NCBI GenBank assembly: GCA_963775685.1
Contig: CAVZJV010000007.1
Location: 1-47,574, forward strand
Source of the DNA: Candidatus Bathyarchaeota archaeon
GTDB lineage: Archaea; Thermoproteota; Bathyarchaeia; Bathyarchaeales; Bathycorpusculaceae
Length of the DNA: 47,574 nt
Direction: 5' to 3'
The notes under the pieces were generated by a model, which ran no database searches, was not told the DNA's origin, and saw only the letters and a list, made by a program, of their open reading frames with translations. The translations under genes and the position numbers were made by a program. Below, in pieces: positions 10,701 to 31,326 of this stretch; position 1 is the stretch's first letter; every line of letters begins with the position of its first letter.

Positions 10701-10848
10701 TTTTATTAATACTTACGACTTGTAATGTAAAGTTGAGAACCACAACATGAAACTAACAAAAACATCCAGCATAGCAATAATCGCCCTAACAATAACCGCA
10801 CTAGCCCTAACACTAACAACCGCCGCAATTCTAAGCGCAAATCAAACT
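10701..10848 (+). pseudogene. Truncated duplicate of promoter and signal peptide of gene 15344
   Basis: ATG 10747 MKLTKTSSIAIIALTITALALTLTTAAIL aligns with 15298-15445, then switches to the repeat element. Confidence 0.85.
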
Positions 10849-11073
10849 TATACGGCCACTTAGTAGAGTTACCATGGAACCCTTCTAACGTTATTGTCTG
10901 CTAGACAACAACCGGTGTTTTTGCAAAATATGGGGTTTGTTTTGGTTGCTTTTCTTGTTTGGGCTTTGCAGCGTTTTCTGGCTGCGTCTTTGCCCGTCGC
11001 TATGTGGTTGAAAAAGATTGTTGGAGGCGGCTTGTTCTAGTGCCTTTGTATGAGCGAGAAAAGTTTTCCACAA
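10841..11073 (+). repeat. TA-associated element, copy a (5' segment)
   Basis: TTGCTTTTCTTGTTTGGGCTTTGCAGC.TTTTCTGG.TGCGTCTTTGC shared with 12660-12710; reverse complement of 24975-25133. Confidence 0.85.
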
Positions 11074-11125
11074 GCCACAAAAGGGAAATCGACACCAAGT
11101 CTTCAAATGTGTCCGCTTGCGAGAT

Positions 11126-11521
11126 CTATAGTGTTTCACGTTTTAACTCTTTGATCTTATCAAAATGCGGGTCCGTTGAAACAATAAAGTCTGCTTTAAT
11201 AGCAATAGCAGTGGCAGCGTGGAGGGCGTCTCTTGGCGCCAAATTGTGTTCTTTGATGAGTTTTAAAGCATCCAAGGTAAGTTTTCTGTCTGTGGAAATG
11301 ATATCTATATTTGGGAAGTTTAGGAGTGCATAAGATGTTTCTGTGGCAAGTTCTGGTTTACGTTTCTTTATTGACCAAAATATTTCATCAAATGTTAATA
11401 CTGAGGTGGCTGCTTTTTGGTCACCTTGTTGGATTTGTTGAAGCAGAGCTCTTGCTTTTTGTCCAGTCTCTTCAGTGTTTATAGCTGCATAGATGAAGAC
11501 ATTTGCGTCTAGGTAAAGCAT
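11126..11521 (-). CDS. vapC: VapC PIN-domain toxin
   Basis: YLDANVFIY, SVLTFDEI, LAPRDALHAATA, IVSTDPHFD. Confidence 0.93.
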   Translation of the reverse strand: MLYLDANVFIYAAINTEETGQKARALLQQIQQGDQKAATSVLTFDEIFWSIKKRKPELATETSYALLNFPNIDIISTDRKLTLDALKLIKEHNLAPRDALHAATAIAIKADFIVSTDPHFDKIKELKRETL

Positions 11522-11766
11522 TAAGGGTTTCTCTGTTCAAGTTCTTCTTCGTATTCGTGGGGATTTATTTTCTCGTTTGAGTGTATTTGCTCTGCTATTT
11601 TTTTGAATACAGCTACTCCATCGAAGCTCGGTTTTTTAAGGATTAGTTTGTCGTCTTCAAATGTGAACAGGACTTTGGAGCCTGCTTCTATTTTGAGTGC
11701 TTTTCGCATAGTTCGTGGAATAACTACTTGGCCTTTTGGACCGACTTTCATTTCTTCCTCAATCAA
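11521..11766 (-). CDS. vapB: AbrB-family antitoxin
   Basis: KVGPKGQVVIPRTMRKALKI; stop overlaps the vapC start. Confidence 0.9.
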   Translation of the reverse strand: MIEEEMKVGPKGQVVIPRTMRKALKIEAGSKVLFTFEDDKLILKKPSFDGVAVFKKIAEQIHSNEKINPHEYEEELEQRNP

Positions 11767-11863
11767 AGTCTTACCTTCAGTTATACTTTTGTAGAACCCA
11801 TATTTATACTAAACTTAGCAACGTCTCTATAGAGCAGAGTTGTTGTCTCGCTAAGTTTATATT

Positions 11864-11883
11864 TTACCCAATTATTTGGGTAA
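11864..11883 (+). promoter_or_regulatory. Palindromic operator of TA promoter
   Basis: TTACCCAA-ttat-TTGGGTAA between a TTTATA TATA-like box and ATG 11896. Confidence 0.65.
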
Positions 11884-11895
11884 TATAGTGTTTGC

Positions 11896-12138
11896 ATGGT
11901 TGAAACTACGTACTATGAAGACAAAGTGTATCTCCCGAGGCAGGTGCGCGAAAAGCTCGGGTTAGTCGATGGAGACGTTTTACACATTGAAGTCGTCGAG
12001 AGAGGAGTAGCCAAATTGAGCGTAGTACGCCGGTGCGGTGCCTCCAAGCGCGCCCTTGAAAAGTTAGATAACCCACCTGATCTGGGAACCATCAAAGGCA
12101 AACTTATAAGAGAAGAAATCTATGAAGACATTACTTGA
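11896..12138 (+). CDS. vapB: AbrB-family antitoxin
   Basis: KVYLPRQVREKLGLVDGD; C-terminal REEIYED; overlaps vapC. Confidence 0.85.
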   Translation: MVETTYYEDKVYLPRQVREKLGLVDGDVLHIEVVERGVAKLSVVRRCGASKRALEKLDNPPDLGTIKGKLIREEIYEDIT

Positions 12139-12559
12139 CACAAACATTCTAGTTCATGCCTATAACAAATCTTCGCCCAATCAACAACAAGCAAGCAAAA
12201 TCCTCAAAAAAGCCATGCAGGGCGAAATCCAAGCATGCCTAACACCTCAAGTGCTCTACGAATTTTTCGCCGTAGTCACCAGCGCCAAAAGAGTTGAACA
12301 CCCAATATCATCAAGTGAAGCTGCAAATCTTTGCATCGACCTCTGGGAGTGCAATAAGATAGAAAAATTGAACCCTTCAGGAATAGCGCCTATCGAAGTT
12401 TTCAAATTTGTAGAAGAACTTAATTTGTCTAAAGCTGAGATTTTCGATTGCGTCTTGGCTGTGACCGCCAAAGAGAACAGTATAGACAGCATATATACTG
12501 AGAACATTACAGATTTCAAACCTTACAAATTCATAAAAGCAGTAAACCCATTTGTATAA
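12122..12559 (+). CDS. vapC: VapC PIN-domain toxin
   Basis: LLDTNILVHA, PQVLYEFFAVVT, IFDCVLAVT, IYTENITDF. Confidence 0.92.
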   Translation: MKTLLDTNILVHAYNKSSPNQQQASKILKKAMQGEIQACLTPQVLYEFFAVVTSAKRVEHPISSSEAANLCIDLWECNKIEKLNPSGIAPIEVFKFVEELNLSKAEIFDCVLAVTAKENSIDSIYTENITDFKPYKFIKAVNPFV

Positions 12560-12599
12560 TCGCTAATTTTTCCATTTTAAGCTTCTATTGTGAAGTGGT

Positions 12600-12965
12600 T
12601 TGTTTGTCTGTAAGAAGAGACATGAGTTATTGCACTGTGAAGTAAAAGTTTGTTTTGGGTTGCTTTTCTTGTTTGGGCTTTGCAGCATTTTCTGGTTGCG
12701 TCTTTGCTTGGTCGCCATGCGGTTGGGTAAGGTTGTTGGAGGCAGCTTGTACTAGTTGTTGTTTGGGCGAGTAAAGTTTACAACAAAATTCAGGCTACTC
12801 AATGAATGCAACTTTAGAAGCTTTCTAACAGAAAATAACAGAGGATGATTAGTTGCCGTTGAGGTAGCGTGTTAGGTTAGGTGCTCGCCAACGCCTTGTC
12901 GTGGAGAATGGTGACGGCACAAATACTTTTAATTACTTGTCCTTTTTTTTGAAAAAAGGCGAATG
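12600..12965 (+). repeat. TA-associated element, copy b (longest; 5' segment plus core)
   Basis: Contains the segment shared with 10841-11073 and the core GTTAGGTGCTCGCCAAC..GTGGAGAATGGTGACGGCAC at 12876-12920. Confidence 0.85.
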
Positions 12966-13056
12966 AGAAAAAGGTGATTGTTTTGGGTTGTAAGTTTTTT
13001 CAATGGGTTGTTTTCTTTGTCTACTAGGGCTTTCTCGATTAATCAACAGCCTATTG

Positions 13057-13552
13057 CTAAAGTTCTTTTGCCACTTTGTTAACGACAGCCTCGCTTATTC
13101 TAAAACCTGTCTCACGTAGCCTTTTGAGAGCTTTTATGATGTCGGGTTTATCGATGACTTTGGCATCATACATCACTCTCAGGACCCACAAAGTCCCCAC
13201 GACGTTTAAGTTCATAGCTTTAGCTCTTCTTCGAGCAGCTTTATCGTCTAGCACAATTTGGTCCGCTTTCTCTTCTGATGCTAAAGCTATTGTTTCGGCT
13301 TCACCTAAGTCAAGCGGATCCAACAAAGCGTTAACAAGTAAGCTGTTTCTGACTTCCTTGACTTCAATCAAATTAGCCTTCACTGCCTCTTGGAGTTCAT
13401 GTTCACCCATTAACCCCTTCCCTGCTATGCAAATTTTCTTCGTAGACCGCTTTAGCTACAAGAATTCTTTTGAAGATTATTTGCAGTTTGTTGAGATACC
13501 CTAAGTTGCTTAAAGCTATAATAACTGATGAATTCAGAACAGCTTTGTTCAA
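13057..13552 (-). pseudogene. DUF3368-type PIN toxin with two frameshifts
   Basis: TTG 13552 reads MNKAVLNSSVIIALSNLGYL; two +1 shifts in A4 runs join LDLGEAETIALA..LDDKAARRRA..GTL. Confidence 0.8.
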
Positions 13553-13779
13553 ATCATAAGCTCCTTAAGAGCTTCCTTATCCGTGTAGGGATAAGCTGAG
13601 ATTCCTCTTTTCTTAAGTTCAACAAGAAATTCTTGGATAGGAATTTCGGCTATTTCTGCAGCTTTTCCAACGCTTATGGAACCCTTAGAAAAGGCTTCAA
13701 TTGCGGCAGCCACCTTAACGTCTCGTTCAGACAAGAATTCTGGAACTTTAACCTGTACCACTTTGGTTAAGAAACCCAC
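13549..13779 (-). CDS. UPF0175-family antitoxin
   Basis: AIEAFSKGSISVGKAAEIAEI...FL.ELKKRGI UPF0175 pattern. Confidence 0.85.
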   Translation of the reverse strand: MGFLTKVVQVKVPEFLSERDVKVAAAIEAFSKGSISVGKAAEIAEIPIQEFLVELKKRGISAYPYTDKEALKELMI

Positions 13780-13891
13780 CCTCCACTTTGTTCATACATA
13801 ACCGCATTAAAAAACATGTTGGAGCTCACATAATTTTCTGTTTTGCTCCAAAATCAAGTTAGGATATCTGATTCATGTTAACCCGAAGAGA

Positions 13892-13940
13892 TTGCTCGTC
13901 AACCTCATGTCGTGGAGAATGGTGACGGTACAACTACTTT
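13892..13940 (+). repeat. TA-associated element, copy c (core)
   Basis: TGCTCGTCAACCTCATGTCGTGGAGAATGGTGACGGTACAACTACTTT. Confidence 0.85.
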
Positions 13941-14006
13941 GAGCTATAAAAGGGAGTTAAATTGCTAAGATTATGTTTGGAGGTTTGTGTTGGCTGTGGT
14001 TTGTCG

Positions 14007-14285
14007 TTATTTGTTTTTTTTTTCGGTTGTGATTTCTTCGATTGGTTTTGGTGGGGGTGTTGTTGCCATTGTATAGCCTATCCATGCGCCTATGCCTAAG
14101 ATAGCTACGAAGGCTACGAATACTGGGGCTGCAATGAGCCAGAATCTAACATCAGCAGATGCGCCTATGTTTAGCCAGGGCTGGATTAATTGTTGATAAC
14201 CAAACAGTGCTCCTAAGTAAACTACAGCGACAACTGCGCAGACAAGAAGAATCGCACCACCTATTGTTTGATCTTTACTAGCCAT
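14007..14285 (-). CDS. Conserved archaeal 2-TM protein (WIGYTMATTPPPKPIEEI family); paralog of 33857-34147
   Basis: SKDQ.IG..I, two TM helices, same C-terminal motif as 33857. Confidence 0.8.
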   Translation of the reverse strand: MASKDQTIGGAILLVCAVVAVVYLGALFGYQQLIQPWLNIGASADVRFWLIAAPVFVAFVAILGIGAWIGYTMATTPPPKPIEEITTEKKNK

Positions 14286-14595
14286 ATTTTTTTCACCACC
14301 TAACAAAAGAAGGATTAATTGTTATCGATTGTTGACTAACATATTAACCATATTCTTTTTTCGGCACTATACTGATTTGTTTGAGATTTTTGTCTTTGTT
14401 TGGTTGTTGTGGGTTTTGTGTGCTGTTTGTTTTTGTTGGGTATTTTTTGAGGTTGTGAATGTGGTTTGGGTTGGTTTTGGGGGGTTGGTTGTTATAGTTG
14501 TTGATGGGTTTTTTTTAATTATCGTTTGGAAGGTTTTGGGGTGCATCTATAATAGGGTCTTTTGTTATCTGGGTTTGAGTTAAGAGGATCTGTAG

Positions 14596-15438
14596 ATGTT
14601 TGCAATTGGCCATTTTGCTTTGGGATATATATTTGGGAGGGGCACCTCAAAGCTCGCCAAAGTAGCGTTAAATCTTCCTCTTTTACTTGCAACCTCAATT
14701 CTACCAGACGTTGATTTGCTCTTTCGTTTTCTCATACACAGAGGACCCACCCACTCAATAATCACAATATCTGTCCTGATGATCCCATTCTTCATTATCT
14801 ACCGCAAACAAGCCCTTCCCTATTTTGCAGCCATGCTTACCCACATACTCATAGGCGATTTTTTCACAGGAGGCAGCGAGCTTTTTTGGCCGCTATCTCA
14901 CGACTTATTTGGAATATTGAACTTTGAAGTGACAAGCCTGGGTATCGAGGTTGTGGAGCTTGTGCTTTTCCTTGTAGTTGTCCCAGTTATGTATAAAATG
15001 GGTGATTTGCAGACGCTTCTAAAACCTCACAACAAGAATTGGGCTCTAATAATCCCGTTGGGATCAGTTATTGGCCCTTTGATTTCGCTTGGTCGAGGTC
15101 AAGAAGGTTCGCTTCCAGCCCTTCTTGTTGTGCCAAGCCTGTTATGCATAGTTATATTTGCTTACTCTATTTTTATTTGGCTAAGAGCTGGCATTTATCA
15201 GAATAAAAATAGACTGCAACTTGACAGTGCATATAAAGTTTCTTTGATGTGTATTTGTGTTCTTCTTCTTGACAGTGTTAACCATCAATACCTAATGTTT
15301 ATTAATACTCACTACACGAGATGTAAAGTTAGGGAACAAAATAATGAAACTAACAAAAACACCAACCATAGCAATAATCGCACTAACAATAACCGCACTA
15401 GCCCTAACCCTAACAACCGCTGCAGTTCTTACCAATAA
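14596..15438 (+). CDS. Membrane metal-dependent hydrolase (YdjM/DUF457-like)
   Basis: GHFALG, LPDVD, HRGPTHS, HILIGD motifs; the tail overlapping 15344 is probably run-on from a lost stop. Confidence 0.8.
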   Translation: MFAIGHFALGYIFGRGTSKLAKVALNLPLLLATSILPDVDLLFRFLIHRGPTHSIITISVLMIPFFIIYRKQALPYFAAMLTHILIGDFFTGGSELFWPLSHDLFGILNFEVTSLGIEVVELVLFLVVVPVMYKMGDLQTLLKPHNKNWALIIPLGSVIGPLISLGRGQEGSLPALLVVPSLLCIVIFAYSIFIWLRAGIYQNKNRLQLDSAYKVSLMCICVLLLDSVNHQYLMFINTHYTRCKVREQNNETNKNTNHSNNRTNNNRTSPNPNNRCSSYQ

Positions 15439-15793
15439 TCAAACTGTTCCTTTAAACGGAACAATAAACGCCGTAAACCTAGACGTATACACCGACAGCG
15501 ACTGCACCCACGCCGCCAAAGCCCTAACCGTAGGAACCCTAAACCCAGGCGCCACCGCAACACAAACAGTCTACATAAAAAACACCGGCAACATAGCCGA
15601 AACCCTAACCATGACAACCAACAACTGGAATCCTACAAGCGCCAGCGACTCATTAACCCTAACCTGGAACCGACAAAACACAATCCTCCCAGCAGGAGAA
15701 TCAATCCAAGCAACCCTAACACTAACAGCCGCATCAAACACCGGTAGCCTAACAACCTTTAGCTGCGACGTAACACTCAGCGGCACACAATAA
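15344..15793 (+). CDS. Secreted beta-rich hypothetical protein
   Basis: Signal peptide; VYTDSDCT, G.LNPG, YIKNTGN; strongly A/C-skewed codons. Confidence 0.75.
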   Translation: MKLTKTPTIAIIALTITALALTLTTAAVLTNNQTVPLNGTINAVNLDVYTDSDCTHAAKALTVGTLNPGATATQTVYIKNTGNIAETLTMTTNNWNPTSASDSLTLTWNRQNTILPAGESIQATLTLTAASNTGSLTTFSCDVTLSGTQ

Positions 15794-15795
15794 AA

Positions 15796-15843
15796 TTAAG
15801 ACAAAACTAAAGTGTCACTAAGACTGTTTGGTTTTTGTCTTAA
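15796..15843. terminator. 11-bp inverted repeat between convergent genes
   Basis: TTAAGACAAAA ... TTTTGTCTTAA immediately after the stop at 15793. Confidence 0.45.
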
Positions 15844-15859
15844 ATATAATGTCAAATAA

Positions 15860-16056
15860 AGGTTGCAGGGGTTTTTTGGATGCGCCTTATAATGCCACGT
15901 TCCGTCTGCCAAAGACTGCACCAAAGAGGGATGTTATAGTGGCCATTAAATGAGATAGGCAAAGTCAAGTTTAGATGCTCGCCACCCCCAGATTTATGGA
16001 GAATGATGACGGCACAATTTTTTTGTGTTAGTAGATAAATTTTTTGAAAAATCGCC
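15860..16056 (+). repeat. TA-associated element, copy d
   Basis: AATGCCACGTTCCGTCTGCCAAAG..GTTTAGATGCTCGCCA..GGAGAATGATGACGGCACAA; reverse complement aligns with 19998-20118. Confidence 0.85.
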
Positions 16057-16065
16057 AACAACGAT

Positions 16066-17179: not shown

Positions 17180-17267
17180 AGCTTTTAACGAGATTTTAAC
17201 TTAAAGCAGGTTACCAAAATATTTAACCCTTATTCGAGAACAAAGCCAAAAAATACGCTTAGTTAGC

Positions 17268-17990: not shown

Positions 17991-18092
17991 ACAAAACCAA
18001 TGGCTAACTTAAGATATAAGACACTATGAAAAAATCTGAAGTATATCGAAAACCGAACTATTCTACATCAATCTCAGGCTTTACCGAATCAT

Positions 18093-19948: not shown

Positions 19949-19991
19949 ATCAAACACTAATTCCTATCAAAATTAACGTCGCAAAACTTTG

Positions 19992-20118
19992 GTTGCGCCG
20001 TCATCATTCTCAAACCACATGAGTTGGCGAGCACCTAAACCGTACCACGCTTAGCTCATTAATGGCAACTATAACAGCCCTCTTTGTTGCAGCTTTCGGC
20101 AAACGGAACGTGACATTT
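19992..20118 (-). repeat. TA-associated element, copy e
   Basis: 19998-20118 matches 21646-21766 at 120 of 121 nt by manual comparison. Confidence 0.92.
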
Positions 20119-20286
20119 GGCGGTCACCGCCAAGAAGCGATCGAAAATCTCAGCTTTAAGAAACTGAGTAGTTGAAGAATATCACAAAACTTTGTGATAA
20201 ATTAGATTTCCTTTTTTCCGGATGCTTGGAGAAAGTTTAAAGATTTCCGAATTGTATTTGTTGCTAAGAATTAATGGTGATTGGCA

Positions 20287-20483
20287 TTGACTGTGACAGC
20301 TAACAACGCTGAAGTAAAGTTGGTTCTTGAAAAAACTAGACAGTATCCAGCTTGAGGCTCCGAGTATTGCTTCTACCTGAAGAAGAGGTATAAGAAGAAG
20401 AAAAAAGAAACTTGATGCAGCTCGAAAAGAAATTGCAAAAGGCCAAAAAAAGCCTTGACGCATTACTTAAAGAACTGTATTAA
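20287..20483 (+). pseudogene. RelB-like antitoxin pseudogene
   Basis: Across frameshifts reads MTVTANNAEVKLVLEKLDSIQLE..LLLPEEEV*EEEKKKLDAARKEIAKGQK.SLDALLKELY. Confidence 0.6.
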
Positions 20484-20533
20484 TTAGGGCTTGGCTTTTG
20501 AAGGTTTAAATTTTATGTTCAATAATTATTGAT

Positions 20534-20806
20534 GTGGTGTTTGATGTGTCTTTGGCCAGTGTTGTTGATGAGTTTCCTTTATTTAGGGAAAGAGAGGCGA
20601 AGGAGCGTTTCTTGTTGGTTTTGGGTCTTCTTGCTTCTCGAACTGTTACTTTAGGTAAGGCCGCTGAGGTTTTAGGTATGTCTCGGGTAGAGTTTTCGGC
20701 GGTGCTTAGAAGTATTGGTTTTAAGTATAGTTATTTGGATGATGAAGAGTTGACCAAAGAAGTGGTTGCAGGCAAAGATTTGTTGAAGAAGAAGCGGTGT
20801 AGTTGA
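20534..20806 (+). CDS. UPF0175-family antitoxin
   Basis: VTLGKAAEVLGMSRVEF..L...G; overlaps the PIN gene. Confidence 0.85.
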   Translation: MVFDVSLASVVDEFPLFREREAKERFLLVLGLLASRTVTLGKAAEVLGMSRVEFSAVLRSIGFKYSYLDDEELTKEVVAGKDLLKKKRCS

Positions 20807-21276
20807 AGGCTGCTATAGATAGTTCAGTTTTAATTGCTTTAGAGAAACTTGGTTACCTGAAATTAGTTGGAGAGATATTCGATAAGTTGGTTGTTGCTGA
20901 ATCTGTTCTTGAAGAGATAAGAGGCGATGAAGTTTGCACCGTGGTGAGTGAGTTAACGAGTGCTGGGTTGGTTGAAGTTGCGAAGGGTTCTAATCATGAA
21001 TTATTGAACTTGCTGTCGTCCAGTCTTGGGAAGGGAGAGACTGAAACTATTGTGATAGCGTTAGAGTTGAAGGCTGATATTGCGTTGCTTGATGATTTAA
21101 GGGCTCGCAAAGCAGCAAGGCGTTTGAAGGTTAAAGTAATGGGTACCTTGGCTGTATTGAAAGTTTTACTTGAGCTGAAGTTAGTGGAGGAGCAGCCTGT
21201 GGCTTTGTGTGAAAAACTGATTAATCAGGGCTTTTGGGTAGATGCTGAATCATGTTTAAAGATACTGAAGGGGTAG
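20803..21276 (+). CDS. DUF3368-type PIN-domain toxin
   Basis: IDSSVLIALEKLG, LGKGETETI, LLDDLRARKAA, GTLAVL. Confidence 0.88.
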   Translation: MKAAIDSSVLIALEKLGYLKLVGEIFDKLVVAESVLEEIRGDEVCTVVSELTSAGLVEVAKGSNHELLNLLSSSLGKGETETIVIALELKADIALLDDLRARKAARRLKVKVMGTLAVLKVLLELKLVEEQPVALCEKLINQGFWVDAESCLKILKG

Positions 21277-21281
21277 GAAAC

Positions 21282-21380
21282 TTACGTTATTCTTAGAAAG
21301 CTCAATGGAAAGCATCTGCTTGAAGTGTATGGCATTTGAAGAGGATACAATTAGAGTCATAACTACTTTTATGACATCTC
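21282..21380 (+). pseudogene. Possible DUF4258/BrnT-like toxin C-terminal remnant
   Basis: Reads YVILRKLNGKHLLEVY / EEDTIRVITTFMTS across a shift. Confidence 0.35.
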
Positions 21381-21396
21381 AGGATGCTCTTCAAGC

Positions 21397-21610
21397 GAAG
21401 TTATATTAAAAATCTTTAACAGTCAAAAACCGAGGTCGCAACTCACGAAACTCAGAGTGTTGCGGCACTATGACATAAAGAAACTTAGGCTGCACCGACA
21501 CATATAGAGCAAAAATCGGGGATATGCGTATAATTTATGAAATCGTCTGGAATCAGTGAAATGTCAATGTGCTGATAATTGAACCAAGAGAAACAGCCAC
21601 TCTTGAATGA
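21397..21610 (+). pseudogene. relE: RelE-family toxin pseudogene (3' part)
   Basis: Reads YDIKKL.GCTDTYRAKIGDMRIIYEIVWNQ*NVNVLIIEPRETA, a RelE signature. Confidence 0.75.
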
Positions 21611-21645
21611 TGAAAGAGTAGTAAGCAAGGAAGATAAACAAGCGA

Positions 21646-21880
21646 CCGTCATCATTCTCAAACCACATGAGTTGGCGAGCACCTAAACCGTACCACGCTT
21701 AGCTCATTAATGGCAACTATAACAGCCCTCTTTGTTGCAGCTTTTGGCAAACGGAACGTGACATTTCAAGATGCATCCAAAAAGCCCTCCAAAGCCTATG
21801 AAACAAAAGCAACCCAAAACACACCCTCACTGAAAAATGCAAAAACCTTGTCTTCTTCTAAAAGACAAATAAAACACTCC
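21646..21880 (-). repeat. TA-associated element, copy f (links core and 5' segment)
   Basis: Near-identical to copy e, then continues AAAAGCAACCCAAAACA..TGCAAAAAC..AGACAAA as in copies a, b and i. Confidence 0.9.
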
Positions 21881-21988
21881 AAAACAGAAACTTAAATGTC
21901 AAGCTGCTTGGTTTTGGTTTAATGTCTTGTTCTAAAAAAGATAATTCAAATATAATCCATGTATCATTATATGTAATTGTTGGTATAC

Positions 21989-22189
21989 TTGACCGAATGT
22001 TTAGCAAAAACAAGGAAAGTCGGCGGTTCATTAGTAGTTACCTTGCCTAAAGAGCTAGTTGAGGCTAACAGAATTAAGGAAGGTGAAATTATTGAAATTA
22101 AAATCAAGAAACTGCGTAAAGATGGCTTTGGAATCCTCAAAGGAGTAGGTCCTTTCACCGCCCAAGATGAGTTGACAACGCATGGCTAA
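21989..22189 (+). CDS. vapB: AbrB-family antitoxin
   Basis: KTRKVGGSLVVTLPKE..IKEGE; FG.LKGVGPF. Confidence 0.88.
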   Translation: MTECLAKTRKVGGSLVVTLPKELVEANRIKEGEIIEIKIKKLRKDGFGILKGVGPFTAQDELTTHG

Positions 22190-22568
22190 GTATGTTATAG
22201 ATGCTTATGCGTGGATTGAATATTTGGATGGAACCGATTCAGGAAGCAAAGTCTCTGCGATTCTTGAAAACAACAATGACATATTTACCTGTGCAGTAAC
22301 TCTTGGAGAAGTTGTCAGTAAAGTTGCACGGATGGGCAAAGATGCAAAGGTCGCATATGATGTTTTACTAGGAAATTCGCAAGTAGTTAATGTCGATGAA
22401 GAACTTTCATTGCAGGCAGGATTGCTACATTGTGAAATGCGTAAAACTGCCAAAGATTTTAGGCTTGCAGATGCCTATGTTTTGGCTACTGCAAAAAGGC
22501 TTGAATCTAAAATTCTAACGGGGGATCCTCACTTTAAGCCCTTTAAAGAAGCAATAATGATAAAATAA
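22182..22568 (+). CDS. vapC: VapC PIN-domain toxin
   Basis: VIDAYAWIEY, TLGEV, LADAYVLATA, ILTGDPHF. Confidence 0.93.
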   Translation: MAKYVIDAYAWIEYLDGTDSGSKVSAILENNNDIFTCAVTLGEVVSKVARMGKDAKVAYDVLLGNSQVVNVDEELSLQAGLLHCEMRKTAKDFRLADAYVLATAKRLESKILTGDPHFKPFKEAIMIK

Positions 22569-22667
22569 AATCTGGTTAACTACATCCAACAGAATTAACC
22601 TACCGAATCCTAACCTTGTGATGCAAATTTGGCCGTGTCTGTTTCTTTACAGGATTTAACTTTTCAT

Positions 22668-22765
22668 ATTCACCATTTCTCAAAAAAACAAGTAAATAGA
22701 CAGTAGTTGTACCGTCATCTTTCTCCACAAATCAGGGTTGGCAAGCACCTAAACATAACTTCGAC
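22668..22765 (-). repeat. TA-associated element, copy g (core plus 3' tail)
   Basis: GTAGTTGTACCGTCATCTTTCTCCAC..GGGTTGGCAAGCACCTAAAC. Confidence 0.85.
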
Positions 22766-22862
22766 GTAATCATTGTGTTGTTGCACTGCACTCTTATCCA
22801 AGCTAAAAACGTTGCAAAACATATATAATTACATTTTATATATTTTGTATTGTGTAAAAGTA

Positions 22863-23162
22863 ATGTCTGAGTCTGAAACAATATGTCTAAGACTATCCAA
22901 AGAAACAGCAAAAAAACTTCGCGAAATAGCTAAAAAAGAAGAAAAAGACCGATCAACCCTGATACGCGAAATCTTAGAAGAAGGCATCTAAGAAAAAAAC
23001 ATAGCGTACGCAATAGAGCTATACCAAAAAGGGCGCATAACAGGCTGGAAAGCAGCCCAGCTAGCAAACATCTCGCTGTGGAACTTCTATAAACTCTTAA
23101 CTGAAAAAGGCATCCTTCTACAATATTCCCAACAAGACCTCGAAGAAGACCTCAAACCCTAA
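22863..23162 (+). pseudogene. RHH plus UPF0175 antitoxin with internal stop
   Basis: TAA at 22989 interrupts ...EEGI*EKNIAYAIELYQKGRITGWKAAQLANISLW. Confidence 0.82.
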
Positions 23163-23174
23163 AAGGAAAAGACC

Positions 23175-23704
23175 TTGCCTGTAATCTCAGATACCAGCCC
23201 CTCATATGGCTTGCAAAAGTGGGTAAAATAACCCTCCTAAAAGATCTCGTTGCGGAAGTAATTATACCTCAAGAAGTGTATACAGAAGCAGTAGAAAAAG
23301 GATTACAAGGCGGATTCACCAACACCCAGACCATAAAAGAATGCATAAATGAAGGCTGGATAACCCCCTCCAAACTAACCTCCAAAGACCAAAGTATACT
23401 CCAAAAGATCTCTGAAAATACCAATGAAATCCACCAAGGAGGAGCTCACGCAATAGTCTTGGCGCATGAAATGAAATTATTGCTACTGATGGACGAATCA
23501 GCTGGACGCACATTCGCCGAGGCTAGGGGGCTAAAAGTAAAAGGAACAATCTATGTAATCATAACCGCCCTAAGAAAAGGCCTTGTCAGTGAAACGCAAG
23601 CCAAAGAAACGGTGCTAAAAATGGTAACTAAAGGCTTTCGCCTAGAACCAACTCTACTTGCTCGACTAATCATCGAAATAGAAAAATATCATTTCAAAAA
23701 ATAA
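23175..23704 (+). pseudogene. DUF3368-type PIN toxin, frameshifted near start
   Basis: TTG 23175 reads MPVISDTSP; a missing base in a C run is needed to continue LIWLAKVGK; GE is changed to GG in IHQGGAHAI. Confidence 0.8.
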
Positions 23705-23821
23705 CCACTCAAAGCATAAAACATATAACTTCTAAAACTAAAAAACATCACCAAAGTTTGCTAATAATTTATTGACGTTTTCCTTCAACAATCAAAGAAT
23801 AAAGTCTTATTGCAAAGTTAG

Positions 23822-23880
23822 TCTTAGGTGCTTGTCATCTACCCGCTCATGCATAGTTTGAATATGGTCGAAGTTACGTT
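23822..23880 (+). repeat. TA-associated element, scrambled fragments (copy h)
   Basis: TTAGGTGCTTGTCA and GTCGAAGTTACGTT match the reverse complement of copy g and its flank. Confidence 0.45.
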
Positions 23881-23887
23881 CCTTTTT

Positions 23888-24867: not shown

Positions 24868-24959
24868 GCCAAGGATAAGCCTATCACTGGATAATTATTT
24901 AAATTTTAGGACTAAACAGACATAAAACAACCCAAAAAAACAAATCACCAAAACCAACC

Positions 24960-25133
24960 TCACCAAACCCAATAGCCACGGACACAGACGCAACCAAAAC
25001 CTACTCCAAACCCCAAATTAAAAAAGCAACCCAAACCAAACCCCCAATTTTGCAAAAACACCAAGTTGTTGTCTAGCAGACAAAAACGTTAGAAGGTTCA
25101 AAGGTGACTTCCACTAAGCCGTCTAGGTTTGAC
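24960..25133 (-). repeat. TA-associated element, copy i (5' segment)
   Basis: TTTTGCAAAAACACC..GTTGTTGTCTAGCAGACAA.AACGTTAGAAGG is the reverse complement of 10880-10930. Confidence 0.85.
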
Positions 25134-25282
25134 TTGTCTTTTTTATGCCAGTGTGAGTTTAGGGATCACTATTCAGCCGTATTTGATCATTTTAAACAAA
25201 AGTCTCCTGATGAATCCTAAAGCGATGGGATGTATACTCGAACTAAAGCAAGGCAGGGCATTATAATGAATAAGTTTTTTAG

Positions 25283-25312
25283 ACACTTTTACACTTTTAC
25301 ACTTTTACACTT
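25283..25312 (+). promoter_or_regulatory. Tandem ACACTTTT x3.75, probable antitoxin operator
   Basis: Perfect 8-bp iterations ending 10 nt before ATG 25323. Confidence 0.6.
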
Positions 25313-25322
25313 AGGTCATAAC

Positions 25323-25598
25323 ATGACTGTTACTATAAAAATAGACGACGCAAAAAAACAAAAAATCGACCGTTTTCTAGCCAGGATAGTGCTTCAGGAA
25401 GGCAAAAAAGTAACTATACAGGAAGCCGTTGGCATCATGATTGATCATGCGCTTGAAGATGAGGAAGCTTTCACTCAAAACTTCACAAACCTTCCTCCAT
25501 TGGAAGAAGATCCAGCATGGAAGCTGCTTGAAAACCCCAAGCACTGGGGGGTCAAAGATGCATCAACCCGCATAGACGAGTTTTTATATGGAAGCTAA
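25323..25598 (+). CDS. vapB: Putative RHH-like antitoxin
   Basis: MTVTIKID..K..ID; C-terminal D.STRIDEFLYG; overlaps vapC. Confidence 0.78.
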   Translation: MTVTIKIDDAKKQKIDRFLARIVLQEGKKVTIQEAVGIMIDHALEDEEAFTQNFTNLPPLEEDPAWKLLENPKHWGVKDASTRIDEFLYGS

Positions 25599-26016
25599 TC
25601 TGATGACAATTTTTGTCGATACAGGCATATTCGTAGCCTTACGGAACGCAGAAGATATCAACCACCAAAGAAGCAAAGAACTCATGATAGCTGCTTTAAA
25701 GGGGAATTGGGGCAGAATATACACCTCAGACTACATTATCGACGAAGCGATAACAACTGCCTTAGCAAGAACAAAAAGGCATGATATTGCGGTTGATGTT
25801 GGTTCATATATTATAGAGTCCCCAAGGTTTATCAAAATAACAATCGACAACGAAATTTTCAATGAAGCTTGGTTAAAATTTAAAACGCTAAAGGATAAAG
25901 GTCTTAGCTTCACTGATTGCACTTCAATAGCCCTATCTCAAAAACAAAGAATAAAGCAAATCTTAAGCTTTGATTGCGGCTTTGACGGTATAATGCAAAG
26001 ACTATGTTTAACTTGA
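25588..26016 (+). CDS. vapC: VapC PIN-domain toxin
   Basis: IFVDTGIFVA, TSDYIIDEAIT, LSFTDCTS, ILSFD..FD. Confidence 0.93.
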   Translation: MEANLMTIFVDTGIFVALRNAEDINHQRSKELMIAALKGNWGRIYTSDYIIDEAITTALARTKRHDIAVDVGSYIIESPRFIKITIDNEIFNEAWLKFKTLKDKGLSFTDCTSIALSQKQRIKQILSFDCGFDGIMQRLCLT

Positions 26017-26579
26017 AACTGTAAACAAAATCTATAAGCTATAATGTCAGCAACCAAAGCAAACCCACAATTTTACGCAATAACGAATATCTCTTCTCCA
26101 TCACACGAAAAACTTATCCCTTCATAGGCGCTAAATCGTCTGGTTGCACATCCTTGATAGTTGGAATCCCTCGTTTAGGCATTTGTTTGCAACCTCCGAA
26201 AAAATGGCTAACCACCTCATCAGGGCAATAGTAGCCACTGCCAAGCTTGTATCTGGCTTCCCGAGCACACCCATATTTATCACACACAATCGGCTCATTA
26301 AGCGGCAGACAATGGCAGTGGATTGGCTCGTTTCAACCAATGGAGCCGCTCTAGACTCAACCGAAAGACCCCCAAAGAAGAAGAACAGTGAAAAACTTTG
26401 TCCTCTTCTATAGTTCAATACTCGTTCTGTTTTTTTGTCGGAAACCTCAGCTACCACAGACATCGCAGGTTTTTGCGCATCACAAATCTTTCCGCCGCGG
26501 AGCCAAGATTCGCTGCGAAACGTGCTTACTTAAAAAACTTGAAGGGTTTATTTTTTTTTAGTTTATTTGCTGAAGTATT

Positions 26580-26840
26580 TTATTCATACACTTTTTTTCC
26601 GAGTTCAACATCATGAAAAATAACTCTTTCCTCTTGCTCAGCAATTTCATAGAGATAATTCGATATTTTCCAACTCGTACTTTCCATAAACCCTTAAGAG
26701 GACCAACATGCATGATGCCGTTGCCGGGCTTTATGAGCGTTCTTTAAATGTTTCCACAATTCAAAATTCTAGACTTTACTGTGCTTGGCAATTGTTTCTC
26801 TTTTTAAGAAATGCTTTAGAAAATCTTGGGGTTTAGGCAT
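26580..26840 (-). pseudogene. relE: RelE-family toxin pseudogene
   Basis: Reads GPLKGLWKVRVGKYRII/YEIAEQEERVIFHDVELGKKVYE* with several frameshifts. Confidence 0.8.
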
Positions 26841-26841
26841 G

Positions 26842-27068
26842 TTAGTTCAATATTTTTTCTAGTCATTAATTGAGCATTCAACGTATTCTCCTTTAGCTAC
26901 CTGCTTTTACTCTCCTCAATGGCTGCTATTTTTTCTTTATCTGCAAGGTGCCTCTAACGTTGCAAGTATATGCTCCATTTTAATGTAAGTGCCGACCATT
27001 TCCTTGAAAAGTTTCTTGGAATATTCTTCCTTCTTTTTGATTTTGCGTTCTCCTCCAACTGAAGGCAC
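26842..27068 (-). pseudogene. Antitoxin pseudogene upstream of relE
   Basis: Reads YIKMEHILATLE/LADKEKIAAIEESK/QVAKGEYVECSIND; abuts the relE start. Confidence 0.65.
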
Positions 27069-27568
27069 CTGAATAATAGACTGTTTAAGCGCCCCTTACT
27101 TCTTTTCAGACAAACCTCAATAAACAATAAGACCTCTTCTTATTAGAGCAAAAAAACTACCCCATTCTTTCTAGTCCTTAGCCCATCCCACCCCATCCAA
27201 TCCAACATTGAGCCATGTTGACTTAAAGGATAAAATATTACTCGCCCATCCCAACAGCAACTCGAAAACAGCCCAAACCAAAAAACCAAACCACTCCACA
27301 ACCAAAAGATCGGATGCAAAAACACCGAATTACCCCATCCCCACAAAAACAAAACAAAAACCTTCGGTGACCGATTGTAACAACTACCAAAACAAAAACA
27401 AACCATTCCAAGTGTTGGTGTTATATCAAAACATTTATCAAAAAATTGTCGTCAGTACCCAATTTCCAATAAACTATATAAATTATTAAAAAGAACTAGT
27501 ACGAGAGCAAAACACACATTTTTAAGGATTTTGTTTCGCTCATAACAAAATTAAAGGAAAAGAACAAA

Positions 27569-30094
27569 ATGCAAAACTTGAAACATAAAATTATGGCCAT
27601 AACGATTTCGGCAATTCTAATGCTCTCCTTGGCTTCCATAATGCTAACAACAACCGCACACGACCCACCATTCAAAATTTCAACATACGCTTTCCTCAGC
27701 ATTGAACCCGACCCCGTCGGGGTTGGTCAAGAAGCATACGTAAACTTCTGGATTGACAAACCTCCACCAACTGCAGCCAGCCAATACGGAGACAGATGGC
27801 ACAACTTTGAAGTAACAGTCACAAAACCAGACGGAACAACCGAAAAATTAGGACCATTTACGTCAGACGACACTGGAGGATCACACACTGTTTACACACC
27901 AAGCGTAACTGGAAACTACTCTTTCGTATTCAACTTCCCTGGAGAAACCTTAGCAGGTGCCAACCCAATTCCAGGCGGAAGCGCAAACGACGAATTTATC
28001 GGCGACTACTATCAACCCAGTACAAGCCAAGTAGTCACTCTATATGTACAAGACGAACCAATAATGAACGCCCCATCAAATCCGCTTCCAACAAACTACT
28101 GGACACGCCCAATATACTCAGAAAATCTTGACTGGTACAAAATCAGTGGAAATTGGCTTGGAACAGTAATGCAAAGTCACGGCGGAGCATACTACAACAT
28201 CAGCGGCAACTTCAACCCGTACACTGAAGGACCAAACAGCGCGCACGTACTCTGGACAAAGCCCCTCGCACCAGGAGGCATCATCGGAGGCGAATTCGGA
28301 GGAACCGAATACGGCAGCAGTTACTACCAAACTCCACAGTACGAACCCAAATTCCAAGGCATAGTTATAAACGGAATACTTTACTTCAAAAGTGTCCCAG
28401 GCAGTAGCACCTACCCAGCAGGATGGGTTGCTTTAGACATCCGCACAGGCGAAACAGTATGGACAAAAGAAACAACTAACTCACTTCTATGCGGCCAAGT
28501 GCTCGACTACATTTCCCCCAACCAGTTCGGTGGACTCTCATACCTTTGGAGCATTGAACCCACGGTGAAACCCAACAAAGGCACCACATACGGTCTATAC
28601 GATGCAATAACCGGAAACTGGATACTAGATATCGTCAACGCAACCTCTTTCAGCAAAATCGTCATGGACGAAGGCGGAAACCTATTAGGCTACTACACCA
28701 ACAACACCGACAACACATTATGCATGTGGAACTCAACCAAATGTATTCAAGGATTAGATGAAACTCGCTATTGGTACTGGAGACCAGTACAAGGTGCAAT
28801 GGTTCCATTCGACCAAGGCATACAGATGCAGGCACCCTTACTCACAACCTATCAAGGCGCAACCATTAGCCCCAAGTTCAGCATCTTAACTATGAGTTCA
28901 GACATCGTGCTTCTCCACTCAACACCAGTAGCCCGATTCGGACTCGGCTGGGACCTTTGGGTTGGATATGACGCACACTCAGGCAATCTACTGTGGGGAC
29001 CGACAAACCACACCTATGTACCATTCGCCAGAATAATGGACAGCCCAGCAATGGACGGCAAAATCTTTGAATTTACACATCCAACAATGACATGGGACGC
29101 CTACAGCCTATCAACAGGAGAACATGTATGGGGACCAACACAACCGTACGATAACCCATGGGGTTACTTCGTAGCTTACGACCCCATCGTGGCATATGGC
29201 ATGCTCTACCAGTCTGATTTCAGCGGAACGCTCCACGCATATAACGTCGACACTGGAAAAGAAGTATGGACATTCTCCACTGGAACAAGCGGTTATGAAA
29301 CTCCATACGGCACTTACCCGCTCTACCACATTGAAGCAGTTGCAGACGGAAAAGTCTACGTCGAAGGAGGACACACATATAGTCCACCAATATTCAAAGG
29401 GTCACAGTTGTGGGCGATAAATGCAACCACAGGCGAGAAAATCTGGAGCGTATCCAGCTTTACAACTGTCAACCAAGCCAGTGCAGTTCTTGCAGACGGC
29501 GTCTTAGTAGAACCCAACGCTTACGACAACCAACTATACGCCTACGGCAAAGGACCTAGTTCAACCACCGTTTCAGTGCAACCCTTCGGACAAAAGATGG
29601 TCATTAGTGGTACTGTCACAGACATTTCTGCCGGTACAAACCAACAAGCACCCGCAGCCAACTTCCCACATGGTGTTCCAGCTATTTCAGACGAAAGCCA
29701 AAGCGCATGGATGGAATACGTCTATATGCAGCAACCTAAACCCACCAACGCGACAGGAGTTTCAATATCAATCGATGTTCTTGACTCCAATGGCAACACA
29801 CGAACAATCGGCACAACCACAAGTGACTCAAACGGCGCATTTAGCCTCACATGGACGCCAGACATAGCGGGTGACTACAAAGTCAGCGCCAATTTCTTAG
29901 GCTCCGAATCATACTACCCATCTTCAGCTGAGTCCTTTTTCACCGTTACAGAACCAGAGCCAACAGTTGCCCCTGCTTTAACCACACCATCGGTAGCAGA
30001 CCAATACTTCATTCCAGCAATCATAGGGCTGTTCGTATTCGTCGCAATAATTGGCGTTGTATTGGCATTATTGATGCTCAGGAAACGACCATAA
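27569..30094 (+). CDS. PQQ-binding-like beta-propeller surface protein with C-terminal TM anchor
   Basis: Paralog of 5271-7850 (VNFWIDK.PPTAA, LLCGQVLDYISPNQFGGLSYLWS). Confidence 0.88.
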   Translation: MQNLKHKIMAITISAILMLSLASIMLTTTAHDPPFKISTYAFLSIEPDPVGVGQEAYVNFWIDKPPPTAASQYGDRWHNFEVTVTKPDGTTEKLGPFTSDDTGGSHTVYTPSVTGNYSFVFNFPGETLAGANPIPGGSANDEFIGDYYQPSTSQVVTLYVQDEPIMNAPSNPLPTNYWTRPIYSENLDWYKISGNWLGTVMQSHGGAYYNISGNFNPYTEGPNSAHVLWTKPLAPGGIIGGEFGGTEYGSSYYQTPQYEPKFQGIVINGILYFKSVPGSSTYPAGWVALDIRTGETVWTKETTNSLLCGQVLDYISPNQFGGLSYLWSIEPTVKPNKGTTYGLYDAITGNWILDIVNATSFSKIVMDEGGNLLGYYTNNTDNTLCMWNSTKCIQGLDETRYWYWRPVQGAMVPFDQGIQMQAPLLTTYQGATISPKFSILTMSSDIVLLHSTPVARFGLGWDLWVGYDAHSGNLLWGPTNHTYVPFARIMDSPAMDGKIFEFTHPTMTWDAYSLSTGEHVWGPTQPYDNPWGYFVAYDPIVAYGMLYQSDFSGTLHAYNVDTGKEVWTFSTGTSGYETPYGTYPLYHIEAVADGKVYVEGGHTYSPPIFKGSQLWAINATTGEKIWSVSSFTTVNQASAVLADGVLVEPNAYDNQLYAYGKGPSSTTVSVQPFGQKMVISGTVTDISAGTNQQAPAANFPHGVPAISDESQSAWMEYVYMQQPKPTNATGVSISIDVLDSNGNTRTIGTTTSDSNGAFSLTWTPDIAGDYKVSANFLGSESYYPSSAESFFTVTEPEPTVAPALTTPSVADQYFIPAIIGLFVFVAIIGVVLALLMLRKRP

Positions 30095-30170
30095 GAATAC
30101 TAAAATAAACTCCTTCTTTCCCCTTTTTTAGTCTTTCAATATTTTTAATTAAAAGATGCGGGCTCAGTAA

Positions 30171-30256
30171 AGCTATCGAGATTTTGATTATTTAGGCCAG
30201 TAAGCGCCAGAGAAGTTGTTGTTGCAGTTGCCTTCGGCAGATTGATTGCAACAACT
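30171..30256 (+). repeat. Second repeat family, copy 2
   Basis: See 19851-19948. Confidence 0.75.
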
Positions 30257-30417
30257 TTTATTGACACAAGAATAAGTTAAGAGAAGATGCAACTGCTACT
30301 GCAACAATTGAATTCTGCAAATTAACTGTTGCATTTACCACCCTTCAATAATACATGCAAAAAATAACTCATAAGCACTCTAACCCCCATGGCAAATCAA
30401 CGGGTTATTAGAAAAAA

Positions 30418-30465
30418 GTTGTCCTGTCAAAATCCTCCATATTTGGGGTTAGCGAGCACCTAAAA
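30418..30465 (-). repeat. TA-associated element, copy j (core)
   Basis: GTTGTCCTGTCAAAATCCTCCATATTTGGGGTTAGCGAGCACCTAAAA. Confidence 0.75.
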
Positions 30466-30560
30466 ATGACGCCAAACCTGATAGAAAGCTGCGGTCCTGC
30501 CAGACATCAATAGTGGGAACGCTTAAATTAGTGGAATAAGAATTTATTGTGGGAAATTCA

Positions 30561-30815
30561 ATGAGCGAAACAACCGCGAAAATAGATGAGAAAGGCAGAA
30601 TAATGATTCCCAAAAACATCAGAAAGGCAGCCAAAATTAAGCCAGGAACATACGTTACCATCAAGACAACAGACACAACCATAATAATAGAACACGCCGA
30701 ATCTATAGCCGAAAAATATGGCGGCCTCTTCCAGATAACAAAATGGCCTGAAGACTTGGACGAATTCATGGTGGAGGCAACCAGAAAATGGTGGACAAAT
30801 CACGCTTCTACGTAG
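30561..30815 (+). CDS. vapB: AbrB-family antitoxin
   Basis: KIDEKGRIMIPKNIRKA..IKPG. Confidence 0.9.
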   Translation: MSETTAKIDEKGRIMIPKNIRKAAKIKPGTYVTIKTTDTTIIIEHAESIAEKYGGLFQITKWPEDLDEFMVEATRKWWTNHAST

Positions 30816-31213
30816 ACGTAAACGTATTTGTCTACTGGCTTGGAAATCACCCAAAATACGGGCAAGTAGCCTTGGAATATATCAAGAAAATGGAAACCTC
30901 CCCACGAGGAAAATACGTAACATCAGCTTTAACACTCTATGAAACACTAGTAATAATAGGTGGCTTAACAGGCAAGAAACTGAAAGACAAGAACTTTGTA
31001 CAACAAGTCATCAACCCTATAACGAGCATCAAAGGATTAGTTATCGAATCCCTTAGATCAGAAGACTTCAAGAAAGCTTCAGATTTGATGAATGAATGCA
31101 AACTCGACTACGAAGACTCACTACATCTAGCCATAGCAACAAGAACAGGTGCACAAGAAATAATCTCAAACGATAAAGACTTTGACTGCACCAAAATCAA
31201 AAGAACCATGTAG
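30788..31213 (+). CDS. vapC: VapC PIN-domain toxin
   Basis: YVDVNVFVY, TSALTLYE, LDYEDSLHLA, IISNDKDFD. Confidence 0.93.
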   Translation: MVDKSRFYVDVNVFVYWLGNHPKYGQVALEYIKKMETSPRGKYVTSALTLYETLVIIGGLTGKKLKDKNFVQQVINPITSIKGLVIESLRSEDFKKASDLMNECKLDYEDSLHLAIATRTGAQEIISNDKDFDCTKIKRTM

Positions 31214-31267
31214 ACAACTGCAAGCGAAATTTTCAATCTCAACCTAAAAACGCGATCAATTAGCAAT

Positions 31268-31326
31268 TAGTGTACCGTCAGCATTTTTCTCCAATCGGGG
31301 TTGGCGAGCGCCTAAACCTAACTACG
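31268..31326 (-). repeat. TA-associated element, copy k (core)
   Basis: TGTACCGTCAGCATTTTTCTCCAATCGGGGTTGGCGAGCGCCTAAACCTAAC. Confidence 0.82.

Follow-up and report, generated by a model that had tools for sequence, protein, structure and literature searches.

A conserved two-block intergenic core at the cassette junctions of a variable toxin-antitoxin and surface-sugar island in one genus of Bathyarchaeia

The Bathyarchaeia rank with the commonest uncultured archaea in soil and sediment, and little is known of the way in which they acquire and exchange accessory genes. This question is raised in concrete form by a 47.6-kb contig (C7; 47,574 nt, the whole of which is here called the window) from a 14-contig, 3.06-Mb assembly, 97% complete, of a Candidatus Bathyarchaeota archaeon from soil. 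In a preliminary description of this DNA, one unrecognised element of 300-400 bp was seen to punctuate a cassette-like array of toxin-antitoxin (TA) modules, and was read as a recombination or capture platform analogous to an integron. What is this element, and do the modules move at it? Our best reading is that its array-specific part, which we call the core, is a conserved module lying between genes, at the junctions of a hypervariable accessory island; the island is located in the cell-surface glycosylation region of a single Bathyarchaeia genus.

The window carries eight cores, found with an nhmmer profile and in agreement with repeat finding and blastn. Those at 12.9, 13.9 and 16.0 kb are on the minus strand, and those at 20.0, 21.6, 22.7, 30.4 and 31.3 kb on the plus strand. 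Alignment of 53 distinct copies from several genomes shows a unit of about 60-75 nt, in which two near-invariant blocks, roughly GTTGTGCCGTCATCATTCTCC on the 5' side and GGTTGGCGAGCACCTAAA on the 3' side, surround a spacer of 5-12 nt; the spacer is variable in sequence and differs in length by several bases. Weaker conservation extends beyond the blocks, about 15 nt leftward and about 12 nt rightward. The 11 partial copies first listed, lettered a to k, are to be revised: b, c, d, e, f, g, j and k are cores by the nhmmer profile, a and i contain the second segment of the element alone, and the fragment at 23822 is unsupported, its score of 13-14 standing at chance level against a shuffle 95th percentile of 15.

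Further cores lie on contig C14 of the same genome, where nhmmer finds four firm copies (1,048,440; 1,051,926; 1,057,317; 1,070,359) and one weak copy (996,156). A degenerate solo core is also present at C14:925891-925938 (E 0.006 in a 14-kb search), 2.5 kb from the gene of this genome that is homologous to the one bounding the arrays in two relatives. All 12 firm cores of the genome are located on C7 and in one 22-kb stretch of C14, and a chance origin of the copies is therefore excluded.

The repeat is real, but it consists of two parts and is no single unit of 300-400 bp. Seventeen copies extend from the core into a long form of about 250 nt, made of the core, a spacer and then the second segment, and alignment of these long forms bears out the statement that copies b and f join both segments. 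The long-form profile also detects the second segment by itself, at 20 more sites of the genome that lie beyond the two islands and beside which no core match is listed; because of this independent recurrence the long form is to be seen as a composite. The copies outside the islands look like a separate dispersed repeat with direct repeats of the TGACGTT type. This family is about 150-200 nt long and occupies at least 20 sites. Its TGACGTT-like direct repeats number two or three, a CAGACGCAACC...CAACCCAAAAC stretch is conserved, and each end carries words resembling TTGTTGTTCT; it has the appearance of either a miniature inverted-repeat transposable element (MITE) or a regulatory sequence. Around the cassette between cores e and f, the segments 19998-20118 and 21646-21766 form 121-nt repeats that are 99% identical and reach 75 nt past the core. 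Where long form e ends, at 20116-20158, a 43-nt piece of the PIN gene 12122-12559 (12430-12472) recurs in inverted orientation with 93% identity.

Repeats of this kind might also be left by a decaying paralogous small gene, or by plain segmental duplication, without any function of their own. Certain long-form copies are indeed open, with open reading frames (ORFs) of 74-83 aa, and large tandem duplications (6.7 kb) occur in the array of one relative. However, 7 of 102 frames across the 17 long forms are free of stops, spread over three frames and close to the number estimated from composition (about 5), and the two open examples gave no Pfam match; the long form was on these grounds rejected as protein-coding. 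Insertions and deletions in its spacer are not multiples of three, and the long form is probably non-coding, a judgement that we make with low confidence. The core, for its part, exceeds its coding surroundings in conservation and is found again between unrelated flanks in 14 assemblies or more, so that gene decay or duplication is in our view a highly improbable explanation.

Several more familiar identities were also considered for the core. The window has no match in Rfam 15 at the gathering score. An att site derived from a tRNA was ruled out, as no tRNA gene is found at the repeat, and so was a C/D-box small RNA, in that the box-like ATGATGA differs between copies (by eye). A C-terminal peptide encoded on either strand was likewise discarded, the changes in spacer length not being multiples of three; column variability shows no clean 3-periodicity.

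The core has a narrow distribution. It was found in 8 of 61 genomes (our genome and 60 relatives), all of one genus; excluding our own, this amounts to 7 of 36 members of the genus versus none of 24 genomes in 20 other genera of the order. An exact-pattern scan covering one genome per species (about 185,000) returned 30 stretches in 14 assemblies, all of which are titled Candidatus Bathyarchaeota archaeon, and a viral collection held no match to the 3' block. Metagenome contigs yielded 28 stretches with the core pattern, many of them near a contig end, and the short-read contigs of several metagenomes break at the core. Loose ends of contigs from four other DNA runs (short pieces of relatives) also lie near edges of the core or the long form, with one weak joint; these were not used as evidence.

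Each genome has its cores in one or two islands, where they cluster in same-orientation arrays of 20-60 kb, set in a region of surface-sugar and surface-protein genes. Orientation is uniform in four arrays of two relatives (22/22, 8/8, 6/6 and 6/6) and on single contigs of five more genomes (10/10, 7/7, 13/13, 8/8 and 5/5). One array (L034:14704-17259, on G029:C3) contains a D5-N/DUF5906 primase-helicase gene of 851 aa, with no integrase seen beside it; this gene suggests a remnant of an integrated plasmid or virus. Genes for AAA_14+DUF4143 and ATPase_2+DUF234 ATPases adjoin the first core in two places, neither of them in the window.

A typical junction reads stop codon, about 50 nt, core, about 85 nt, next start codon, with one or two genes between successive cores. 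To characterize the cargo we used 113 ORFs of at least 110 aa that lie no more than 2 kb from a core, in other genomes and in contigs from metagenomes (113 of 123, the 10 from loci duplicating arrays already covered being excluded). TA genes account for 57 of them (48 PIN, 7 DUF3368 and 2 HepT), and in our own genome 7 of 12 PIN matches fall in the two islands, which hold about 3% of the DNA. TA genes are thus strongly enriched near cores, as had been proposed, and Pfam confirms the TA neighbours of the window copies. The element is nevertheless not specific to TA genes: cores also bound genes for a UDP-GlcNAc 2-epimerase, a flippase, glycosyltransferases, a NUDIX protein and YdjM.

Two further regularities noted in the window hold in part. 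Among the pairs said to bracket TA loci as direct repeats, b/c, e/f, f/g and j/k are pairs of cores and do bracket TA pairs, whereas a/b qualifies solely through the second segment. The strand of the TA genes was said mostly to follow that of the core; this applies to six of the eight cores of the window but is not general among relatives, where 74 short-form cores (drawn from 82 cores with enough flank) are followed by a co-oriented ORF in 37 cases, by an opposite one in 24, and by none within 500 nt in 13. Between plus-strand cores there are also minus-strand UPF0175+DUF3368, MNT+HepT and PIN pairs, confirmed by Pfam.

The movement of cassettes at the core is supported by the second copy of the island in the same assembly. 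Positions 3800-47574 of C7 are homologous to C14:1,044,258-1,086,013 with 83-99.5% identity (99.5% in the last 2.8 kb), this second copy being either a co-assembled strain variant or a true duplication of about 40 kb. The two islands have collinear flanks around a middle part that is rearranged and in part inverted. In a three-way alignment, C14 consists of left flank, one core and right flank, where C7 has cores e, f and g with two TA cassettes between them. The C14 core is e-like up to an 11-nt stretch that ends the 3' block and g-like thereafter, the crossover lying in that stretch, and the 2.7 kb holding the two cassettes is missing. One end of an 18-kb inversion between C7 and C14 falls in the long-form repeat, not at a fixed position of the core. 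The difference between 7900-8170 and C14 was tried as a second insertion or deletion at a core and was not a clean case. Apart from any core, direct repeats of about 115 nt (86-89% identical) lie at 9645-9760 and 11840-11953, the latter taking in the start of the antitoxin gene at 11896 (its first codons). The 2.1-kb segment between them, which holds two MazE+PIN pairs, is absent from C14, by insertion or duplication without a core.

Comparison between genomes points the same way. The stretch 22707-23710 of the window recurs in three other genomes with 84-86% identity and different neighbours. Of 171 ends of 43 inter-genome homology blocks, 55 lie within -35 to +80 of a core, versus 7.8 +/- 2.7 under random placement; part of this excess is to be expected of elements that are conserved and lie between genes. 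In one complete relative, assembled as a single contig, there is a single core in all, which follows a sugar epimerase gene and has no TA genes: an empty site of the kind that had been proposed as a check. This solo core adjoins a gene whose ortholog (71% over 289 nt) is located directly after the last core of a 13-core array in another genome; a second one-contig relative has no core. The C14 junction, the shared single cassettes and the ends of homology blocks together uphold the earlier proposal that TA modules are gained and shed at the element. Cassettes are found present or missing, exchanged and turned round, the breakpoints lying within the core or next to it.

We then asked what the copies themselves record of this exchange, and found them to be mosaic. 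In 24 pairs sharing the left flank alone, the spacer mismatch is 0.42-0.88, versus 0.50-0.88 in unrelated pairs, and the 58 short-form pairs sharing the right flank alone have spacers that differ as much as those of unrelated pairs; linkage of the spacer to the left flank is confined to single cases. Certain copies differ solely in the spacer, and two adjacent cores have a common 5' block and spacer with different 3' blocks. Solo 5' blocks and solo 3' blocks exist. The spacers flanking one cassette differ, save in two cases that represent longer duplications. Copies with unrelated flanks are about 83% identical in the 5' block and about 90% in the 3' block, compared with 80-92% for homologous cassettes between genomes, which implies that the core sequence is either under constraint or constantly homogenised. 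The mosaic copies fit ordinary homologous recombination and gene conversion at least as well as dedicated machinery; of the recombination or capture platform first envisaged, the coming and going of cassettes stands, but not the case for machinery of its own.

The mosaic could also be read as a row of tandem non-autonomous mobile cassettes, in which each unit would have the 3' block as its left end and the 5' block as its right end. The spacer would be junction DNA left at insertion, and a transposase acting in trans would set the units end to end. The lack of linkage between the spacer and both neighbours agrees with this idea, as do the solo blocks and the pairing of the two blocks as imperfect inverted repeats, whose stem pairs can be formed in 89% of cells. 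Yet our genome has no match to the Y1 HUH transposase (PF01797) and no transposase was seen among the neighbours scanned; target duplications were not apparent, the spacers on either side of a cassette being different apart from the two longer duplications; and the cores are not dispersed in the genome. We regard tandem mobile units as very unlikely.

A dedicated site-specific recombinase would give an integron-like platform. The two-block core would be its site, and the enzyme, encoded elsewhere or belonging to an unrecognised family, would cut cassettes out as circles and insert these at a core already in place, the primary insertion site being then represented by the solo core of the cassette-free relative. 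Several observations fit. In 14 assemblies or more the blocks remain near-invariant although the cassettes diverge, the cores are confined to arrays in strict co-orientation, and two independent junctions lie at the extreme end of the 3' block. The complete relative with one core and no cassette, beside an ortholog of another array's bounding gene, agrees with a primary site; half-cores exist, and the TA enrichment is like that of chromosomal integrons. In addition, attC clusters without an integrase (CALINs) are described as common in archaea in a survey (Ghaly et al. 2022, PMC9668308).

Such a recombinase was looked for at the arrays, where a tyrosine recombinase or an HUH transposase beside the element had been suggested as a thing to seek, and none was found. 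No recombinase or transposase was seen among 29 + 34 + 34 + 64 + 113 neighbouring ORFs, no recombinase lies next to any of about 10 arrays, and the array borders of five further genomes hold sugar, surface-protein, radical-SAM, ATPase and TA genes only, with no recombinase. Our genome has 20 matches to the tyrosine recombinase family PF00589, none on C7 or near C14:1.05 Mb. There is no PF00589 match inside the arrays of five further genomes, and one array-bearing genome has just three weak matches, the best at 27 bits. The integron-integrase model TIGR02249 reaches at best 45 bits in our genome, versus a cut-off of 265. The anatomy of the core also speaks against such an enzyme: the spacer goes with neither flank and crossovers take place at each of the two blocks, in contrast to an attC site, which travels with its gene; a spacer varying by several bases would not be tolerated by a duplex two-arm site; and the hairpin of the single-stranded DNA is no more stable than that of shuffled sequences (z -1.3 to +1.5 in 10 copies). 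On balance we consider a dedicated enzyme rather unlikely, though it is the main and a serious rival. It is also unlikely, in our estimate, that the arrays represent archaeal gene capture without IntI or a folded attC, in which a two-block site of about 60 nt, a recombinase encoded away from the arrays and a primary site in the glycosylation island would let circular cassettes build TA and surface-sugar arrays of 40-60 kb.

A remnant of a canonical integron, that is, a CALIN with diverged attC sites, would match the layout, and CALINs without IntI are listed for Bathyarchaeia genomes in Data S1 of the same survey (PMC9668308). Three RYYYAAC...GTTRRRY pairs are present in 9500-33000, and none is at a core; core-centred windows fold no better than the region (z -1.0 to +0.8), and the hairpin is as ordinary as noted above. 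The core motif is absent from the portion of the survey's supplement text that was examined, and the cassettes listed there for a Bathyarchaeia genome are not TA genes. We therefore find a CALIN remnant scarcely credible. The box-pair search, the folding and the TIGR02249 and PF00589 scans confirm the first impression that there is no canonical attC and no integrase in view. The phrase 'integron analogue' holds for layout and behaviour, not for membership; the consulted parts of the literature on archaeal integrons, gene cassettes and TA intergenic repeats contained no description of the element.

The explanation that we tentatively prefer, while rating it at a little less than an even chance, is that the core is a conserved junction module, probably transcribed, and that exchange between its copies relies on the host's homologous recombination and on gene conversion, in the manner of the PeSL promoter/stem-loop cassettes of phages. 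Two direct cores would cross over by host homologous recombination and release the cassette as a circle with one core; a single crossover between the circle and any resident core would reinsert it, always giving direct repeats, and short-patch gene conversion among copies would operate alongside. Arrays would have one orientation whatever the strand of their genes because a circle entering a resident core always yields direct repeats. As integration of circles by any recombination system should give this uniform orientation, orientation alone is no argument for a dedicated enzyme. TA pairs would accumulate in the arrays because they resist loss. The core would be kept near-invariant by a job of its own, most likely transcription.

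Several features of the core are of the kind expected of a transcribed element. Upstream of the first block the sequence is T-rich at -47..-33 and then A-rich at -30..-22, with A at 0.77 at position -26. Stretches so placed would suit either an archaeal TATA region, transcription then starting at the first block, or a T-tract terminator of the preceding gene. As a calibration of this promoter reading, the genome's own genes show no visible positional TATA signal upstream, the only signal there being a G-rich one for ribosome binding. On the core strand, RNA is predicted to form a two-stem hairpin (an outer stem of 9 pairs with a bulge and an inner stem of 5 pairs), which appears in the minimum-energy fold of most of 12 copies. 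Folding of this strand gives a mean z of -1.4, negative in 11 of 12 copies, versus a mean of +0.24, negative in 4 of 12, on the opposite strand; the asymmetry is due to G-U pairs (by eye). These predicted folds lend slight support to a transcribed stem-loop.

A number of points weigh against host recombination at a transcribed module. The promoter, the transcript and the stem-loop are all inferred from sequence. The stem shows no covariation beyond that of shuffles. Unusually for a promoter element, the conserved blocks have a high G+C content and are situated downstream of the putative TATA region. Among the 61 short-form cores of relatives that have a neighbour, the next ORF is opposite in 24, and the core is therefore not simply the promoter or leader of that gene. 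Arms of 17-22 nt are short for homologous recombination. Finally, homologous recombination needs no specific sequence while the blocks are conserved, so that a sequence-specific protein is likely, and this could be a recombinase.

Coordinates of the elements and TA genes are collected in Table 1; the TA calls in the window rest on Pfam. Some neighbouring features deserve mention. A decayed toxin gene lies inside the cassette between cores e and f, at about 21440-21610, as a RelE/ParE-like frame (RIIYEI-type motif) with stops, recognised by eye. A truncated signal-peptide ORF at 10727-10843 is 86% identical to 15334-15445, the start of a 149-aa Ig-like/CARDB-like gene (15344-15793). Three tandem 36-nt repeats at 31737-31844, in the ORF 31493-32008, by eye encode a repeated unit containing Cys-x-x-Cys. 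Large paralogous surface proteins with PQQ-beta-propeller and Ig-like domains (about 840-900 aa) are encoded in the window at 5271-7850 and 27569-30094; such proteins occur at or in the arrays of every genome examined (L033:9389-12007, L072:8694-11384, L076:7040-9691), and many diverged paralogues are present elsewhere in the genome.

Table 1. Positions of cores, second-segment copies and toxin-antitoxin genes in the window, with members of the dispersed family on contig C14.
Feature	Position	Strand	Basis and remarks
Core b, part of a long form down to ~12576	12874-12926	-	nhmmer E 7e-14; long-form profile 12834-12960, 12617-12703
Core c, cut within the 3' block	13893-13937	-	nhmmer E 1e-9
Core d with part of the long form	core 15963-16020, whole 15863-16051	-	nhmmer; long-form profile E 2.8e-38
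Core e with 75 nt of the long form	core 19989-20045, whole 19962-20119	+	nhmmer, long-form profile
Core f, 5' block cut at CCGTCA, complete long form including second segment	core 21645-21693, whole 21605-21896	+	long-form E 8e-57
Core g, right partner in the C14 junction	22703-22760	+	nhmmer E 1e-15
Core j, degenerate	30416-30469	+	nhmmer E 1.3e-4; long-form profile E 1.1e-7
Core k	31267-31323	+	nhmmer E 1.3e-13
Second segment alone (copy a), dispersed-family member, no core	10910-10990	-	long-form profile
Weak second-segment copy (copy i), no core	24955-25118	+	blastn/repeat finding; score 53 vs shuffle maximum 19
Two cassettes missing from the C14 island copy	20046..22748	+	three-way alignment, Pfam
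MazE/AbrB + PIN pair	9905..10565	-	Pfam
MazE/AbrB + PIN pair	11126..11766	-	Pfam
MazE-like + PIN pair, convergent with core b	11896..12559	+	Pfam
UPF0175 + DUF3368 pair	13057..13779	-	Pfam
UPF0175 + DUF3368 pair	20534..21276	+	Pfam; within the 20046..22748 stretch missing from the C14 island copy
MazE + PIN pair	21977..22568	+	Pfam; within the 20046..22748 stretch missing from the C14 island copy
RHH + DUF3368 cassette	22773..23704	+	Pfam; common to three other genomes, 84-86% identity, differing neighbourhoods
Unknown ORF + PIN pair	25230..26016	+	Pfam
MazE + PIN pair, between cores j and k	30549..31213	+	Pfam
Dispersed-family examples	C14:774665-774793, 542192-542296, 1922085-1922169, 2076085-2076156, 2241838-2241953, 507887-507965

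In these arrays, TA genes, defence-like genes and genes of surface glycosylation are exchanged as modules at a defined element of the DNA, in a layout that matches integrons while the parts that define integrons are absent. If host recombination is the true explanation, a conserved junction module alone would suffice for an integron-like architecture; if a dedicated enzyme is, the arrays would represent a new recombination system with a short, well-defined site. Either way, the core is a practical marker for the variable islands of the Bathyarchaeia genomes in question.

How does the core compare with known systems? Repetitive extragenic palindromic elements (REP) and the mosaics they form (BIME) are short, conserved, hairpin-capable intergenic elements, often located after gene ends, which occur genome-wide and go with a Y1 HUH transposase (RAYT). 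The cores, in contrast, are limited to one or two islands, and a search of our genome with PF01797 found no Y1 transposase. The likeness to integrons is closer: near-identical repeats are a feature of the Vibrio superintegron, and integrons and CALINs share with our arrays co-oriented conserved sites between cassettes of one or two genes, a strong TA content, the presence or absence of cassettes at the site, sites that are very similar within a lineage, and many arrays without a nearby integrase. The core differs in having no IntI-type integrase, no R''/L''-L'/R' architecture and no stable hairpin of single-stranded DNA; its variable middle is unlinked to the upstream gene, and about 85 nt of cassette-specific DNA precede the next start.

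The comparison with PeSL (promoter-early stem-loop) elements bears most directly on the explanation by host recombination. In T4-type phages, recombination between PeSLs is reported to shuffle modules and make mini-circles (Arbiol et al. 2010, PMC2839356). PeSLs belong to phages and have a proven bacterial promoter and terminator, whereas the core is located in an archaeal chromosome with a predicted promoter and stem-loop, and its cargo consists mainly of TA modules with genes on either strand. The two are alike in being short conserved intergenic units at the gene junctions of a hyperplastic region, with insertions, deletions and replacements between close relatives ending at the units. Exchange between nearby PeSLs can release circles without a dedicated recombinase, as exchange between nearby cores would on this explanation.

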